From positions 2,474,200-2,538,199 of the forward strand of contig CBDEUD010000003.1 in assembly GCA_965243115.1 (NCBI GenBank): a stretch of 64,000 nt of DNA. The letters are read 5' to 3'. Each line of letters starts with the position of its first letter. Within the stretch, counting starts at the first letter, position 1. This stretch comes from Gammaproteobacteria bacterium (GTDB lineage: Bacteria > Pseudomonadota > Gammaproteobacteria > Eutrophobiales > Eutrophobiaceae). The position numbers and the translations under genes were made by a program. A model generated the notes under the pieces. It made no database searches. It saw nothing but the letters and a program-made list of their open reading frames with translations, and was not told where the DNA came from. Shown one piece after another: positions 6,355 to 39,773 of the stretch.

Positions 6355-7080
6355 CTATTGAGTAACGAGCGTACCTTCCGCCATGCCCCTGGCAGCGCGC
6401 AACAAGGCGCCGGGCTGCATCATATTCAAAACCCGCAAGGGCATGTTGTTCTCGCGGCACAGCACAATGGCAGTCGTATCCATCACTGCAAGTTTTCTTT
6501 CAATCACTTCATCATAACCCAAAACATCATACCTGATCGCCGTTTTGTCATGTACCGGATCGGCGGAGTAAATGCCGTCCACCTTGGTCGCCTTGATTAA
6601 CAGGTCGGCATTGATCTCCACAGCCCGGAGACTGGCGGCCGAGTCGGTGGTAAAGAACGGGTTACCTGTCCCGGCCGCAAAGATCACCACCCGGCCTTTT
6701 TCCAGGTGACGCACCGCACGCCGCCGGATGTAGTCTTCACAGACCTCGTTGATTTTTATGGCCGACATTACCCTGGCGAAGGCGCCAAGCTGTTCCAGGG
6801 CATCCTGCAAAGCGAGGGAGTTCATGATGGTAGCCAGCATACCCATGTGGTCGGCGGTGACCCGGTCAATCCCTGCTGCGGCAAGTCCCGATCCGCGGAA
6901 AAAATTCCCCGCACCCAGAACCAGTGCGATCTCTGCACCGTTCCGGCTCAGGTCCCGGATCTCATTTGCCAGTCTCTTGATTGTGGCAGGATCAATCCCG
7001 TAAGCGGCTTCGCCCATCAACGCTTCGCCGCTCAGTTTAATCAGAATTCTTCGATATTGCAGTTCCGGGGATTCAGGCAA
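6355..7080 (-). CDS. pyrH: UMP kinase
   Basis: [16 protein letters not shown]-terminus and amino-acid kinase fold motifs. TTG start. Confidence 0.9.
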
Positions 7081-7087
7081 ATCACAC

Positions 7088-7984
7088 CTACTCTTTAGTC
7101 AATCCGGCCTGTTGCATGACGTCAGCGGCAAAATTATCCGCTTTCTTTTCGATACCTTCACCGACTTCATACCTGATAAAACCATTCACCGACGCGTTGT
7201 TTGCCTTTAACAGGGCTGCCACGGAGGTATCGGGGTCCTTGACGAAAGCCTGCCCGGTCAAGGTGTTTTCCCGCAAAAACTTTTTCACCCTGCCGCTGAC
7301 CATTTTCTCGATAATATCATCCGGTTTACCCGATTGCCTGGCCTGGGCAAGCAGGACCTGCCTTTCATTCTCCAATACCTGCGGCGCAACATCCTCTTCA
7401 TTGACGCACAACGGATTACTGGCTGCGATATGCATCGCCAGATCCTTTGCCAGGCCGGGATTATCCGCAGACAGGTCCACTATTACACCTATCCTGATAC
7501 CGTGCACGTAGATACCCAGGGTGCCGCCGGCCGTCTTGTTGAGCCGGGCAAAGCGGCGGATGCTGATGTTCTCCCCCAGCTTGGTCACCAACTCCTGCCT
7601 GGTATCTTCGACCGTTTGCGTTCCCCCATTGTTTAACCGTAATTGCCCCGCGCTATCCGCAGTTGCGCCGGGTTGCCCAAGGAGCGTGTTGGCAAGTTGA
7701 CTGGAGAAACCCTGAAAGTTTTCATCCTTGGCGACAAAGTCCGTTTCACAGTTGACCTCCAGTATCACTGCCTGGTTGCCGGCCTGATCCGGTTTCACAA
7801 CTATGGTCCCTTCGGCCGCGATGCGTCCTGCTTTTTTTGCCGCTTTGGCGATGCCGGATTTTCGCATCACATCGATTGCGGCTTCAATATCGCCGCCGGC
7901 TTCCTGCAGCGCCTTTTTACAATCCATCATCCCGGCACCGGTCCTGTCCCGCAATTCTTTTACCATCGACGCAGTAATTTGCAT
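7088..7984 (-). CDS. tsf: Elongation factor Ts
   Basis: [26 protein letters not shown] matches the EF-Ts N-terminus. The ORF extends to 7996, but the ATG at 7984 aligns with the E. coli start. Confidence 0.9.
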
Positions 7985-7992
7985 TGTACTTC

Positions 7993-9507
7993 TCAATCCT
8001 GTTTCACTTCGGTTTTGTCTTCAGGGACCGCGCTGTCCTGTTTTGCGGCACTTTCTGTTTTTGCCGGGATTTTAGCGGTAGTCTTTGCCGGTGTCTTTGC
8101 CGGGGCTTTAGCGGTGGTTTTTGCCGGCGTCTTTGCCGGGGCTTTAGCGGTAGTCTTTGCCGGCGTCTTTGCCGGGGTTTTAGCGGTGGTCTTTGCCGGT
8201 GTCTTTGCCGGGGCTTTTGCCGTGGTCTTTGCCGGCGTCTTTGCCGGAGCTTTTGCCGCGGTTTTTGCCGGCGTCTTTGCCGGAGCTTTTGCCGCGGTTT
8301 TTGCCGGTGTCTTTGCCGGCGTCTTTGCCGGAGCTTTTGCCGCGGTTTTTGCCGGCGTCTCAGCCGGGGCTTTTGCGGTGGTTTTTGCCGTGGCTTTTTT
8401 CGCCGCACTCCCGGTGCCCGCGGATTTTGTCGCAGCCCGCTTCGGCTTTTCGGTTGCGGCCGGCTTCACGTCCTCGCTTACCGCTTCACCTGCCGGGTCA
8501 TCTTTCTGCGCTTCAGCGGCAGCCCCGTCTTCCTTTTCCCCAGCCTGATCAGCAGCCGTCACAACCTCCGGCTCTTCGGTCTCAGCAGGGCTTTCCGTTT
8601 CCGTTAGCGCCTCGGCAACCTGTGCCTCCGCTTGTACTTCAGAACTTGCTTCATCTTCCTGTGCATTGCCGGCATCGGCTTCCGTTTCAACGGGCTTCCT
8701 GATCTTTTCCCTCACGGTCTTCTTCTTGACCAGGACTTTTTCCTCCTTGGCCTCGACAATAGGCGCCCCCTCGGCGTCAAGCTCCACGAAATCATCCTTG
8801 TCTCCGCCCTCACCAAGATGCGCAACCGAATCCTTGCCCGTTATGATCGCATCGGCCACGGCTTTTGTGTATAACCTGATTGACCTTATGGCATCATCAT
8901 TGCCCGGTATAACGTAATCAACCCCGGCAGGACTGTTGTTGCTGTCGACTATGCCGATAACGGGTATCTTGAGCTTGACCGCTTCGCTGACGGCGATATC
9001 CTCGTAGCCTACATCGATCACGAACAATGCATCCGGCCAGCCGTCCATATCCTTGATCCCTGACAGGTTCCGGTCCAGTTTTTCCAGTTCCCTCTCAAAA
9101 TGCAGTATTTCCTTCTTGCTCATGCGTTCCATGCCGCCGCCGGTTTTCATCTCCTCCAGTTCCTTCAGACGGTTGATCGATTGCTTGACCGTTTTGTAGT
9201 TGGTCAGCAGGCCGCCCAACCAGCGCAGGTTGACATACGGCATGCCGCAACGCTGGGCTTCTTCCTTGATAATCTGTTGTGCGGCGCGTTTTGTCCCCAC
9301 GAACAGGATTGTTCCCTTGTTTGCCGACAACTTGCCGGCAAAGTTCAGGGCTTCCTGGAGCAGGACCTTGGTCTTCTCCAGGTCGATAATGTGTATTTTA
9401 TTACGATGGCCATACAGGTAAGCGGCCATTTTGGGATTCCAGTAACGCGTCTGGTGGCCAAAATGTACACCGGCCTCCAGCATCTCGCGCATGCTGATTT
9501 CAGACAT
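7993..9507 (-). CDS. rpsB: 30S ribosomal protein S2 with a roughly 250-aa low-complexity C-terminal extension (acidic segment followed by [12 protein letters not shown]-type tandem repeats)
   Basis: [27 protein letters not shown]... is collinear with S2 for about 255 aa, with SD caggag 7 nt upstream of the ATG at 9507. The frame then stays open through 8742-7993, encoding an E/A/T-rich acidic stretch followed by K/A/P/T repeats. The stop lies 8 nt before the tsf ATG. Confidence 0.8.
8035..8400. repeat. Tandem 12/36-bp repeats (gccggcgtctttgccggggctttagcggt...) forming the coding minisatellite of the S2 tail
   Basis: Periodicity is directly visible in the sequence. It makes all six frames open, which explains the spurious ORFs on the opposite strand. 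Confidence 0.85.
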
Positions 9508-9654
9508 ATTCAAACTCCTGACAGGGTTAAGCCTCCGCACATCCCGCATTACACCCGGCCGTCTACCGTCGAGCCGGCCAGGACCCCGAAATGCGTTCTG
9601 TAATGTGCGTGTGTTCTAACAACAGTTCTCTTGCTATAACCGGATAATTGGAGT

Positions 9655-37333: not shown

Positions 37334-37410
37334 CGGGGTGTAGCTCAGCCTGGTAGAGCACTGCCTTCGGGAGGCAGGGGCCGGAGGTTCAAATCCTCTC
37401 ACCCCGACCA
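37334..37410 (+). tRNA. tRNA-Pro (anticodon CGG)
   Basis: Cloverleaf folded by hand: 7-bp acceptor CGGGGUG/CACCCCG, D-arm GCUC/GAGC, anticodon stem CUGCC/GGCAG with loop UUCGGGA, T-arm GGAGG-UUCAAAU-CCUCU, discriminator A and encoded CCA. Strong similarity to E. coli tRNA-Pro. Confidence 0.85.
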
Positions 37411-37480: not shown

Positions 37481-38020
37481 CTATGACGAATCGGCCACGA
37501 GCTGCTGTTCAACGACAGTCATCCGCTCACGAATAGCCGCCTGGCCCTCCTGCAGACCGTTAAACTGCTGCGTCAGGTCGCTGCGGACTTCGTTGGTCTG
37601 CTGCGTCAGGTCGCTGCGGACTTCGTTGATCTGCTGTGTCAGGTCGCTGCGGACTTCGTTGATCTGCTGTGTCAGGTCGCTGCGGACTTCGTTGATCTGC
37701 TGTGTCAGGTCGCTACGGACTTCGTTGATCTGCTGTGTCAGGTCGCTGCGGACCTGGTTGATCTGCTTTATCAGGTCGCTGCGGAGTTCACGGATCTCAC
37801 CACGGATTTCGCGCATCTCACCACGAACTTCGCTGAGCTGTTGAGTCAGGTCGCTACGGACCCCGCTGATTTGCTGGGAAAGGAAAGTGAGGTAAGCAAA
37901 CATCATGGTAACCACGATGGCCGCGCCCCACTTCAGTACGCGCACTTCCCCGGACAGACGCCCCAACTCACGTGCGCCCTCGAGGTCCTGCACTGTCATA
38001 ACCGTGTTTTCCGTATTCAT
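37481..38020 (-). CDS. Membrane-anchored protein with about 10 tandem 11-aa repeats (SDLTQQINEVR; 33-bp minisatellite), paralog A1
   Basis: The N-terminus MNTENTVMTVQDLEGARELGRLSGEVRVLKWGAAIVVTMMFAYLTFLSQQ is identical to the paralog at 39309-39773. One TM helix, then 11-residue repeats, and a conserved C-terminus ...QFNGLQEGQAAIRERMTVVEQ. The ORF track extends it to 38086. Confidence 0.65.
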   Translation of the reverse strand: MNTENTVMTVQDLEGARELGRLSGEVRVLKWGAAIVVTMMFAYLTFLSQQISGVRSDLTQQLSEVRGEMREIRGEIRELRSDLIKQINQVRSDLTQQINEVRSDLTQQINEVRSDLTQQINEVRSDLTQQINEVRSDLTQQTNEVRSDLTQQFNGLQEGQAAIRERMTVVEQQLVADSS

Positions 38021-38143
38021 AATACTTCTCCTTCTGACGTTTCCATCACAGGTCGTATGGCCAGGACAGGGTATGATGCCCGACAACGCCTGTCAAGGGG
38101 CCCTGAGGGGTCAGACCAGTTCAGATCGCCACGAATTTAGAGG

Positions 38144-39308: not shown

Positions 39309-39773
39309 CTATGACGAATCGGCCACGAGCCGTTGTTCAACGACAGTCATCCGCTCACGAATAGCCGCCTGGCCCTCCTGCAGACCGTTAAATTGGTGCG
39401 TCAGGTCGCTACGGACTTCGTTGGTCTGTTGCGTCAGGTCGCTACGGACTTCGTTGATCTGCTGTGTCAGGTCGCTACGGACTTGGTCAATTCGCTGTGT
39501 CAGGTCGCTATGGACTTGGTCGATTCGCTGTGTCAGGTCGCTATGGACTTGGTCGATTCGCTGTGTCAGGTCGCTATGGACTTGGTCGATCTGCTGTGTC
39601 AGGTCGCTACGGACCCCGCTGATTTGCTGGGAAAGGAAAGTGAGGTACGCAAACATCATGGTAACCACGATGGCCGCGCCCCACTTGAGTACGCGCACTT
39701 CCCCGGACAGACGCCCCAACTCACGTGCGCCTTCGAGGTCCTGCACTGTCATAACCGTGTTTTCCGTATTCAC
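39309..39773 (-). CDS. Membrane-anchored protein with about 8 tandem 11-aa repeats (SDLTQ[QR]IDQV[HR]), paralog A2
   Basis: Same N- and C-termini as A1, with a different repeat number and sequence. Its upstream about 80 bp is near-identical to the A1 upstream region. Confidence 0.65.
   Translation of the reverse strand: MNTENTVMTVQDLEGARELGRLSGEVRVLKWGAAIVVTMMFAYLTFLSQQISGVRSDLTQQIDQVHSDLTQRIDQVHSDLTQRIDQVHSDLTQRIDQVRSDLTQQINEVRSDLTQQTNEVRSDLTHQFNGLQEGQAAIRERMTVVEQRLVADSS

Follow-up and report, generated by a model that had tools for sequence, protein, structure and literature searches.

A 64,000-nucleotide stretch of a Gammaproteobacteria bacterium genome (assembly GCA_965243115.1, contig CBDEUD010000003.1, positions 2,474,200 to 2,538,199; hereafter the window) carries on its minus strand an rpsB gene whose product, ribosomal protein S2 (uS2), is about twice the normal length. 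The coding sequence (7993..9507) comprises 504 codons and a TGA stop (7993-7995). Residues 1-239 form a canonical S2 core (8791..9507) whose C-terminal ...GGDKDD lies directly before the ancestral FVE motif, and residues 240-504 form a tail. An original prediction made from the sequence alone had flagged the interval 7993-8742 as a long S2 tail, acidic at first and then rich in K/A/P/T repeats. Such a tail is present, on the minus strand, and the interval so marked makes up the 3' half of rpsB; it encodes a 265-residue C-terminal extension that follows the ancestral ...DDFVE and forms a single polypeptide with the core. That the extension is a genuine, translated part of uS2 we regard as, at the least, very nearly certain. 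Downstream on the same strand lie tsf, encoding EF-Ts (7088..7984; PF00889, E = 6.4e-71; open reading frame (ORF) 7091-7984), with its ATG at 7984, and pyrH, encoding UMP kinase (ORF 6358-7080).

The core matched the S2 families over the full domain and above curated cut-offs. PF00318 (Ribosomal_S2) was recovered with 310.1 bits against a cut-off of 26.1 (E = 7.8e-93; profile positions 1-216 of 216, ORF residues 23-238) and TIGR01011 with 328 bits against 76.3 (E = 2.2e-98; ORF residues 18-240). Among solved structures, the window S2 aligned with uS2 of Pseudomonas aeruginosa (chain 7unr_b, residues 1-236), up to ...DEFV (E = 1.3e-96). The maximal ORF containing rpsB in the ORF list (7993..9549, minus; 518 amino acids) begins 14 codons further upstream, and an Rfam t44 leader (RF00127; 9526..9631, minus) scored 49.5 bits against a gathering score of 44 (E = 7.7e-08). 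This leader is the known autoregulatory 5' untranslated region of rpsB-tsf (PMC10931766). Of the 14 extra N-terminal codons, it covers the first eight (24 nt), and this extension is therefore non-coding. In agreement, the S2 N terminus from the ATG at 9507 aligned with residue 1 of the solved uS2 chains in the PDB. Leader position and alignment together place the start at ATG 9507 and give the protein of 504 amino acids. The context is that of an rpsB-tsf operon with an upstream t44 leader and with pyrH after tsf, and the gene order in the related locus L041 (map, rpsB, tsf, pyrH, frr) matched that of the window.

Beyond the core, which has a net charge of -1, the tail is an ordered series of charge blocks. 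An acidic linker (residues 240-256; 8740..8790; net -5), in which LDAEGAP is invariant across the clade and FVE is the usual end of gammaproteobacterial S2, is followed by a first basic patch (residues 257-272; 8692..8739; net +7) with a clade-wide conserved V.VKKK core. Next comes an acidic E/A/T-rich block of 81 residues (273-353; 8449..8691; net -23), which is 124 residues long in the close relatives L001-L003, and then a second basic patch (residues 354-373; 8389..8448; net +6) that is conserved in relatives with AKTP-type tails. The largest basic element is an array of AK[T/A][P/T/A] tetrapeptides spanning 111 residues (374-484; 8056..8388; net +26), and a short acidic end (residues 485-504; 7996..8055; net -3) overlaps a Shine-Dalgarno-like sequence for tsf. 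All of these elements are encoded on the minus strand.

The array holds about 27 units (nine AKTP, seven AKAP, six AKTT, three AKTA, one AKIP, and one AETP), laid out as 12-residue super-units of AKT[A/T]-AKAP-AKTP and contributing 27 lysines in 111 residues (24% lysine). At the DNA level, 12-bp units are nested in 36-bp super-units, and Tandem Repeats Finder (TRF) reported a 36-bp period with 9.4 copies at 8060-8397 (85% matches). The 12/36-bp repeats had been predicted, with about 20 copies at 8035-8400; the periods held, and both the count and the bounds needed revision. A degenerate pattern of three units had 26 matches, every one inside the array, compared to none in 100 shuffles. Across the tail, five residue types account for 78% of the composition (26% A, 17% K, 14% T, 11% E, and 10% P), hydrophobic residues are nearly absent, and methionine is lacking. 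The tail is probably intrinsically disordered: in an AlphaFold model built on a 23-sequence alignment, residues 224-504 had predicted local distance difference test (pLDDT) scores of 22-33 and no secondary structure, a supportive result at most given that the shallow alignment left even the core weakly modelled (pLDDT 55-85).

All frames are open across the repeat, as had been pointed out before, and alternative ORFs occur at 8004..8408 (minus), 7643..8548 (plus), 7984..8607 (plus), and 8193..8702 (plus). Coding was assessed with Nei-Gojobori ratios of nonsynonymous to synonymous substitution (dN/dS) between the window and four relatives (L041 and L001-L003). In the S2 frame, dN/dS was 0.02-0.09 in the core, 0.35-0.47 in the linker and acidic block, 0.07-0.21 in the array, where the protein-guided alignment of the repeats biases the value downward, and 0.10-0.28 at the end. 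When the same alignments were recomputed in all six frames, every comparison gave the S2 frame the lowest dN/dS for both the core and the repeat part. For the acidic part it had the lowest value on the sense strand, with the antisense frame that shares its wobble positions tying or falling marginally lower; this mirror frame was the sole near competitor anywhere and showed the same behaviour when the core served as a control. Second codon positions in the array were essentially invariant and third positions varied (entropy 0.63-1.8 bits), and insertions and deletions between relatives comprised whole tetrapeptides, that is 12-bp units. The frame-specific dN/dS, the third-position variation, and the steps of four whole residues bear out the original prediction that both the acidic segment and the repeat are translated as part of S2. 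The tail is coding, purifying selection acts on it in the S2 frame, and the whole clade has it.

The opposing explanation, under which the repeat would lie outside S2 as a spacer that is not translated, as an artefact of assembly, or as a separate gene read in a different frame or from the other strand, draws on the six open frames, on frameshifts inside the repeat in a few homologues from metagenome-assembled genomes (MAGs; P0004, P0005, P0008, P0019, and P0099), whose tails then read GKNRGKSPG... or RQKPRQKP..., and on the absence of the exact window S2 from a large protein collection. That search, made with four alternative starts, returned no match among 15 billion proteins, in which the exact EF-Ts and UMP kinase sequences were present; the window rpsB may be uncalled, differently called, or flagged in the source annotation. 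Against this explanation, the S2 frame runs without a stop and has the lowest sense-strand dN/dS in every region, only the mirror antisense frame equalling or undercutting it, in the acidic part and likewise in the core control, and more than 100 independent assemblies carry the tail in frame. Furthermore, in L042 (1501-3027; homologue P0005) two 1-nt insertions take the AK pattern across each of the three frames in turn, and the conserved end (AKQD..KQD and its stop) reappears in a shifted frame directly before tsf, as would be expected of 1-nt indel errors. Frameshifts of this type are probably sequencing or assembly errors, or else very recent lesions, and not a different mode of coding. 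Between the core and tsf, the coding strand showed no terminator-like site, and the only promoter-like match (8097-8069, near the 3' end of the array) is a bare consensus. Taken together, we consider a repeat that is not part of S2 extremely improbable. Two further candidates were rejected: phase variation through repeat slippage, since the 12-bp units never shift the frame, and an internal start for a separate H1-like protein, since the tail offers no in-frame ATG (the only start codon considered) and the sole promoter-like match lies near the array 3' end.

The distribution of the long S2 was determined in the best 120 homologues from a 5.8-billion-protein set. S2 was at least 400 amino acids long in 111 of these (median 458, maximum 553), and the assemblies were independent and came from ENA, JGI, NCBI, and Logan. 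Among species-representative genomes, the eight closest loci (L001-L008), all from MAGs named 'Gammaproteobacteria bacterium', encoded S2 proteins of 428-533 amino acids. Of the remaining 32 loci, 28 were readable in frame and encoded S2 of 246-318 amino acids with at most a short acidic tail. Consistent with translation of the tail, the reading frame ran nearly to tsf in L001-L008 and in the 111 long homologues, and a non-coding repeat spacer was found in none of L001-L008, the long-S2 homologues, or the 28 readable loci with shorter S2. The latter loci included Chromatiaceae, Thiohalocapsa, and Halochromatium (about 65% core identity) as well as an outlier from Nocardioides (52%). In Methylobacter and Chromatiaceae (about 65% identity), S2 is 245-282 amino acids long and terminates within 10-40 residues of the FVE motif. 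Hence, the long tail is specific to a clade, since its more distant relatives have S2 of normal length. This clade is known from MAGs only. One of the closest loci, L001, belongs to APA_bin_93; since 'APA_bin' genomes derive from symbionts living in the sponge Aplysina aerophoba (PMC11706023), the closest relatives include at least one sponge symbiont.

The S2 frame stays open to the TGA at 7993-7995, so that the gap to the tsf ATG at 7984 is exactly 8 nt, as predicted originally, and tsf is probably translationally coupled to rpsB. The last rpsB codons are AAA CAG GAT TGA. Purine-rich, Shine-Dalgarno-like sequences for tsf, AGGA at 7997-8000 and GAGAA at 7989-7993 (across the stop codon), overlap these codons. 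An AAACAGGAY TGA G[A/G]A motif (7985-8001, minus) was conserved at the DNA level in the loci examined (L001-L006, L041, and L042), and L007 and L008 kept just a GAGGA. Since L005 and L006 retain the motif although their S2 ends some 60 nt earlier, the tsf ribosome-binding site accounts at least in part for the terminal KQD of S2.

Across the clade, the LDAEGAP and V.VKKK patch after the core was invariant, and beyond it the tail was a mosaic. In the 120 homologues, tails comprised AK repeats (13), acidic 13-residue repeats (47-48), a PF01035 domain (15-17), a domain we refer to as D (30), and others (11). The commonest type ends in 2 to about 14 copies of acidic repeats of the AEAEQDDSAPEAA or AKQADSPAEDAVA type (L004 3001-4287; P0015-P0072), which bring the net charge down to -51 and vary in copy number between near-identical cores. 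Combinations also occurred, as in P0033, where the linker is followed by a PF01035 domain, acidic repeats, and the conserved end. In a tree of the S2 core, the AK, acidic, and domain-D types formed clades, and the PF01035 type was scattered through all of them. The number of AK units ranged from 6 to 30 among relatives, with 27-30 in the sub-lineage of the window versus 6-21 elsewhere. Tail length was about 190-290 amino acids in the large majority of homologues, whatever the module type.

PF01035 domains (E = 7e-21) were found in the tails of L006 (3001-4317), L007 (3001-4386), and L008 (3001-4323), and in P0017, P0022, P0033, P0044, P0064, P0065, P0100, P0101, and others. The best PDB matches were Schizosaccharomyces pombe Atl1 (3gva, E = 1.6e-16) and a Vibrio alkyltransferase-like (ATL) protein (2kif). 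VPWQRI of the tail domain aligned to VPWHRV, with a tryptophan in place of the catalytic cysteine of the PCHR motif, which is the signature of ATL proteins. In these sister lineages the ATL domain occurs instead of, or together with, repeats, and no description of S2-ATL or other ATL-ribosomal protein fusions was found in the literature. Domain D, about 115 residues at the extreme C terminus of S2 (L005 3001-4602; P0066, P0073, and P0081-P0120), was predicted by AlphaFold to be helical with a pLDDT of 90.6. It belongs to no Pfam family, sequence and profile searches of the PDB returned no match, and Foldseek against the PDB returned no significant match (best E = 2.2). About 9 of the top 30 weak Foldseek matches were O6-alkylguanine-DNA alkyltransferases, which at template-modelling scores of 0.3-0.39 is suggestive at most. 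The idea that D is a diverged ATL domain was rejected, hhalign giving a probability of 0.1% for D against ATL. Free-standing homologues of D are hypothetical proteins of 114-195 amino acids, for example in Arthrobacter, where the genomic context was uninformative.

Comparison of the tail with known proteins pointed to likeness in composition. The tail alone matched no Pfam or NCBIfam family at E <= 1. Searches with the repeat, and then with the whole tail, of the 5.8-billion set and a further set of 1.84 billion proteins returned compositional repeat matches only, none at E <= 1e-30. These matches included the tails of HU, Ku, CarD, DksA-type, and Lrp-like proteins, along with regions in an adhesion G-protein-coupled receptor, an ice-binding-like protein, and an LRAT-family protein, and by Pfam the ten top matches had unrelated architectures. 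The tail had been likened to H1-like proteins such as AlgP; K/A/P-rich short-period repeats in a C-terminal domain predicted to be disordered were indeed found, and homology to the H1, AlgP, PhaF, Hc1, or BpH1 families was not. As judged from sequence, 'H1-like' is here a matter of composition and period, not homology.

In AlgP, a 154-residue C-terminal region consists of KPAA tetrapeptide repeats, peptides derived from which bind DNA, and the protein positions polyphosphate granules; PhaF carries a domain of the same kind for polyhydroxyalkanoate granules (PMC9239181). The window tail resembles both in its tetrapeptide period, one lysine per four residues, A/P-rich composition, predicted disorder, length of more than 100 residues, and C-terminal position behind an N-terminal anchor. 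It differs in the threonine-rich AK[T/A][P/T/A] unit, which is not KPAA, in the 81-residue acidic block upstream, and in having a ribosomal protein as the anchor; the likeness is one of composition with no detectable homology, and binding of DNA or another polyanion by the S2 tail is putative. Near-identical AKAPAKT-type strings also occur at the termini of actinobacterial HU (HupB), Ku, CarD, and DksA-type proteins. Those proteins, however, are DNA- or RNA-polymerase-associated and come from other phyla, and the resemblance is compositional (E = 1e-10 to 1e-4, low-complexity).

Low-complexity regions are documented for bacterial ribosomal proteins, S2 being among three that carry them in more than 100 genera (Ntountoumi et al. 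2019, PMC6821194). Such regions are mostly A/E-rich, about 9% are lysine-rich, they are located on the surface, and nucleic-acid binding was proposed for those rich in lysine (PMC6821194). The window tail falls within this group of C-terminal extensions: it follows FVE, has a surface position (PMC10931766), and is rich in A, E, and K. Unlike the tails surveyed, it is 265 residues long with ordered charge blocks and a 27-unit array, and sister lineages swap in folded domains. Its array, at 24% lysine, is also under the 30% cut-off for 'lysine-rich' regions used in that survey. H1-like extensions have further been described for the C-terminal tail of mosquito RPS6 and the N termini of Drosophila L22 and L23a (PMC548281, PMC1934995). 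The likeness is that of a K/A/P-rich tail resembling the H1 C-terminal domain on a universal ribosomal protein in one restricted lineage; the ribosomal proteins and the domain of life differ, and the origin is independent. Two NCBIfam models describe S2 with a C-terminal extension, NF051451 ('30S_S2_sunset, sunset domain variant', 382 positions) and NF008966/PRK12311 (334 positions). The window S2 belongs to neither, scoring 285.8 bits against a cut-off of 710 for the former (model positions 1-335 of 382, the last ~50 unmatched) and 290.6 bits against 526 for the latter (positions 3-239 of 334). Searches of the literature found no description of a 'sunset domain' and nothing specific on a lysine-rich C-terminal extension of S2. 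Solved uS2 chains were all 217-283 amino acids long and aligned to residues 1 to about 250 only, and no solved uS2 in the PDB has a counterpart of the tail. The window tail is an extreme, clade-specific case of the documented low-complexity S2 tails and not a new kind of system.

The proposed role follows from the location of uS2. The protein occupies the head-body hinge on the solvent side of the 30S subunit; it anchors bS1 and lies along the chamber of the Shine-Dalgarno helix near the mRNA exit (PMC10931766, PMC6133939). The placement of the tail near the mRNA entry in the original prediction was therefore imprecise, uS2 adjoining the bS1 site and mRNA exit. From there the tail would project from the solvent face as a flexible arm. 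An engineered S2-S1 chimera (PDB 4toi) fits an S2 C terminus adjoining the S1 site. Through non-specific electrostatic contacts, the distal polycationic array would bind a polyanion, be it polyphosphate, nucleoid DNA, or RNA (mRNA or rRNA), with the acidic block as a spacer or an intramolecular counter-charge. Binding by the array is proposed because its period and lysine density equal those of the KPAA domains of AlgP and PhaF; the AK[T/A]P-type tails on HU, Ku, CarD, and DksA-type proteins and the nucleic-acid binding suggested for lysine-rich regions of ribosomal proteins (PMC6821194) count in its favour as well. That the tail works as a polyanion-binding arm is, on this analogy, a proposal whose chances of being right and wrong we see as roughly balanced; the explanation as a whole, a translated disordered uS2 extension acting as such an arm on the solvent face, is one we lean towards slightly.

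Several observations weigh against a polyanion-binding arm. The tail of the window as a whole is weakly basic (net charge about +8 to +9), so that its acidic block could neutralise the lysine array. Across the clade, net tail charge ranged from -51 to +16, and from -15 to +16 even among AKTP-type relatives; with charge not conserved, a single electrostatic function shared by all tails is unlikely. The strongly basic array itself seems to have expanded recently, within the sub-lineage to which the window belongs. Similar K/T/P/A repeats serve as plain linkers in unrelated proteins. To these are added the downward bias of the array dN/dS and the weakness of the structural model, both noted above.

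Some of the same observations also speak for other explanations. The tail might be a low-complexity expansion that is tolerated without a specific function, arising by slippage on an exposed terminus, with selection removing only those variants that harm the ribosome or the coupling to tsf. The turnover of tail composition among close relatives (AK repeats, acidic 13-residue repeats, and other low-complexity sequence), the range of charge and of copy number (6-30), and the relaxation of dN/dS in the acidic part relative to the core would all be expected, low-complexity S2 tails are common across bacteria (PMC6821194), and reaching a tsf start 8 nt past the stop requires translation through the tail anyway. 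Yet dN/dS remained well under 1 throughout and was 0.07-0.21 in the array; tail length held to about 190-290 residues for the large majority; LDAEGAP and V.VKKK were invariant across the clade; folded domains at the same position in sister lineages suggest that the tether is used; and doubling one of the most abundant proteins of the cell is costly. We regard tolerated expansion as possible but rather doubtful.

Alternatively, the tail could be a spacer or entropic bristle, acting through reach and excluded volume to hold apart ribosomes or other macromolecules or to present whatever its distal end carries, with the AK[T/A]P array as an extended, proline-containing rod. The Glu-Pro/Lys-Pro region of TonB is an extended, rod-like comparison, and the acidic-then-basic order of the tail recalls it. 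Tail length was more conserved than composition or charge, the best database matches of the array included linkers of unrelated proteins, and sister lineages attach folded domains to the same linker. Nevertheless, a rigid polyproline rod would need more than the one proline per eight residues that the array has overall (10% P across the tail), the window tail has no folded domain at the end of the tether, and one lysine per four residues is the exact density of the DNA-binding KPAA domains; a spacer is decidedly unlikely. A bolder reading is that the uS2 C terminus in this clade is an exchangeable tether that places DNA-directed modules (an AlgP-like AK array, an Atl1-like domain that binds O6-alkylguanine lesions, or domain D) on every 30S subunit. 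This is suggested because at least one of the alternative cargoes is a DNA-binding domain, and we hold it to be unlikely.

Elsewhere in the window, a second set of repeats was found in two paralogous genes for small proteins of 201 (37481-38086, minus) and 154 amino acids (39309-39773, minus). The two have in common a long N-terminal segment, which includes one hydrophobic segment and is followed by 6-7 copies of an 11-residue repeat, VRSDLTQQINE (33-bp period, 92% matches; TRF 37558-37789 and 39400-39614). The pair, located just downstream of a tRNA gene (37334-37407, plus), has two other ORFs between its members.

The rpsB gene of the window is a clear and comparatively well-supported case of a universal ribosomal protein doubled in length by a lineage-specific disordered tail in an uncultured clade, and bears on ribosome heterogeneity and on the origins of ribosomal protein extensions. 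Such genes are easily flagged as frameshifted or mis-called, as several MAG versions broken in the repeat and the absence of the window S2 from a large protein collection illustrate. Were the uS2 C terminus an exchangeable tether, the AK array would be more than low-complexity sequence, namely one allele of a device that ties ribosomes to DNA. Ribosomes would then have a physical connection to the nucleoid or to damaged nucleic acid, which might, for example, keep translation close to transcription or couple ribosomes to the sensing of lesions. The variants in sister lineages mark the uS2 C terminus as a landing pad for new modules on the ribosome surface near bS1 and the mRNA exit, which opens a testable way to ask whether ribosomes are tethered to DNA or other polyanions in bacteria. 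This pattern of exchangeable modules across the clade, more surprising than the window tail itself, holds the most potential.

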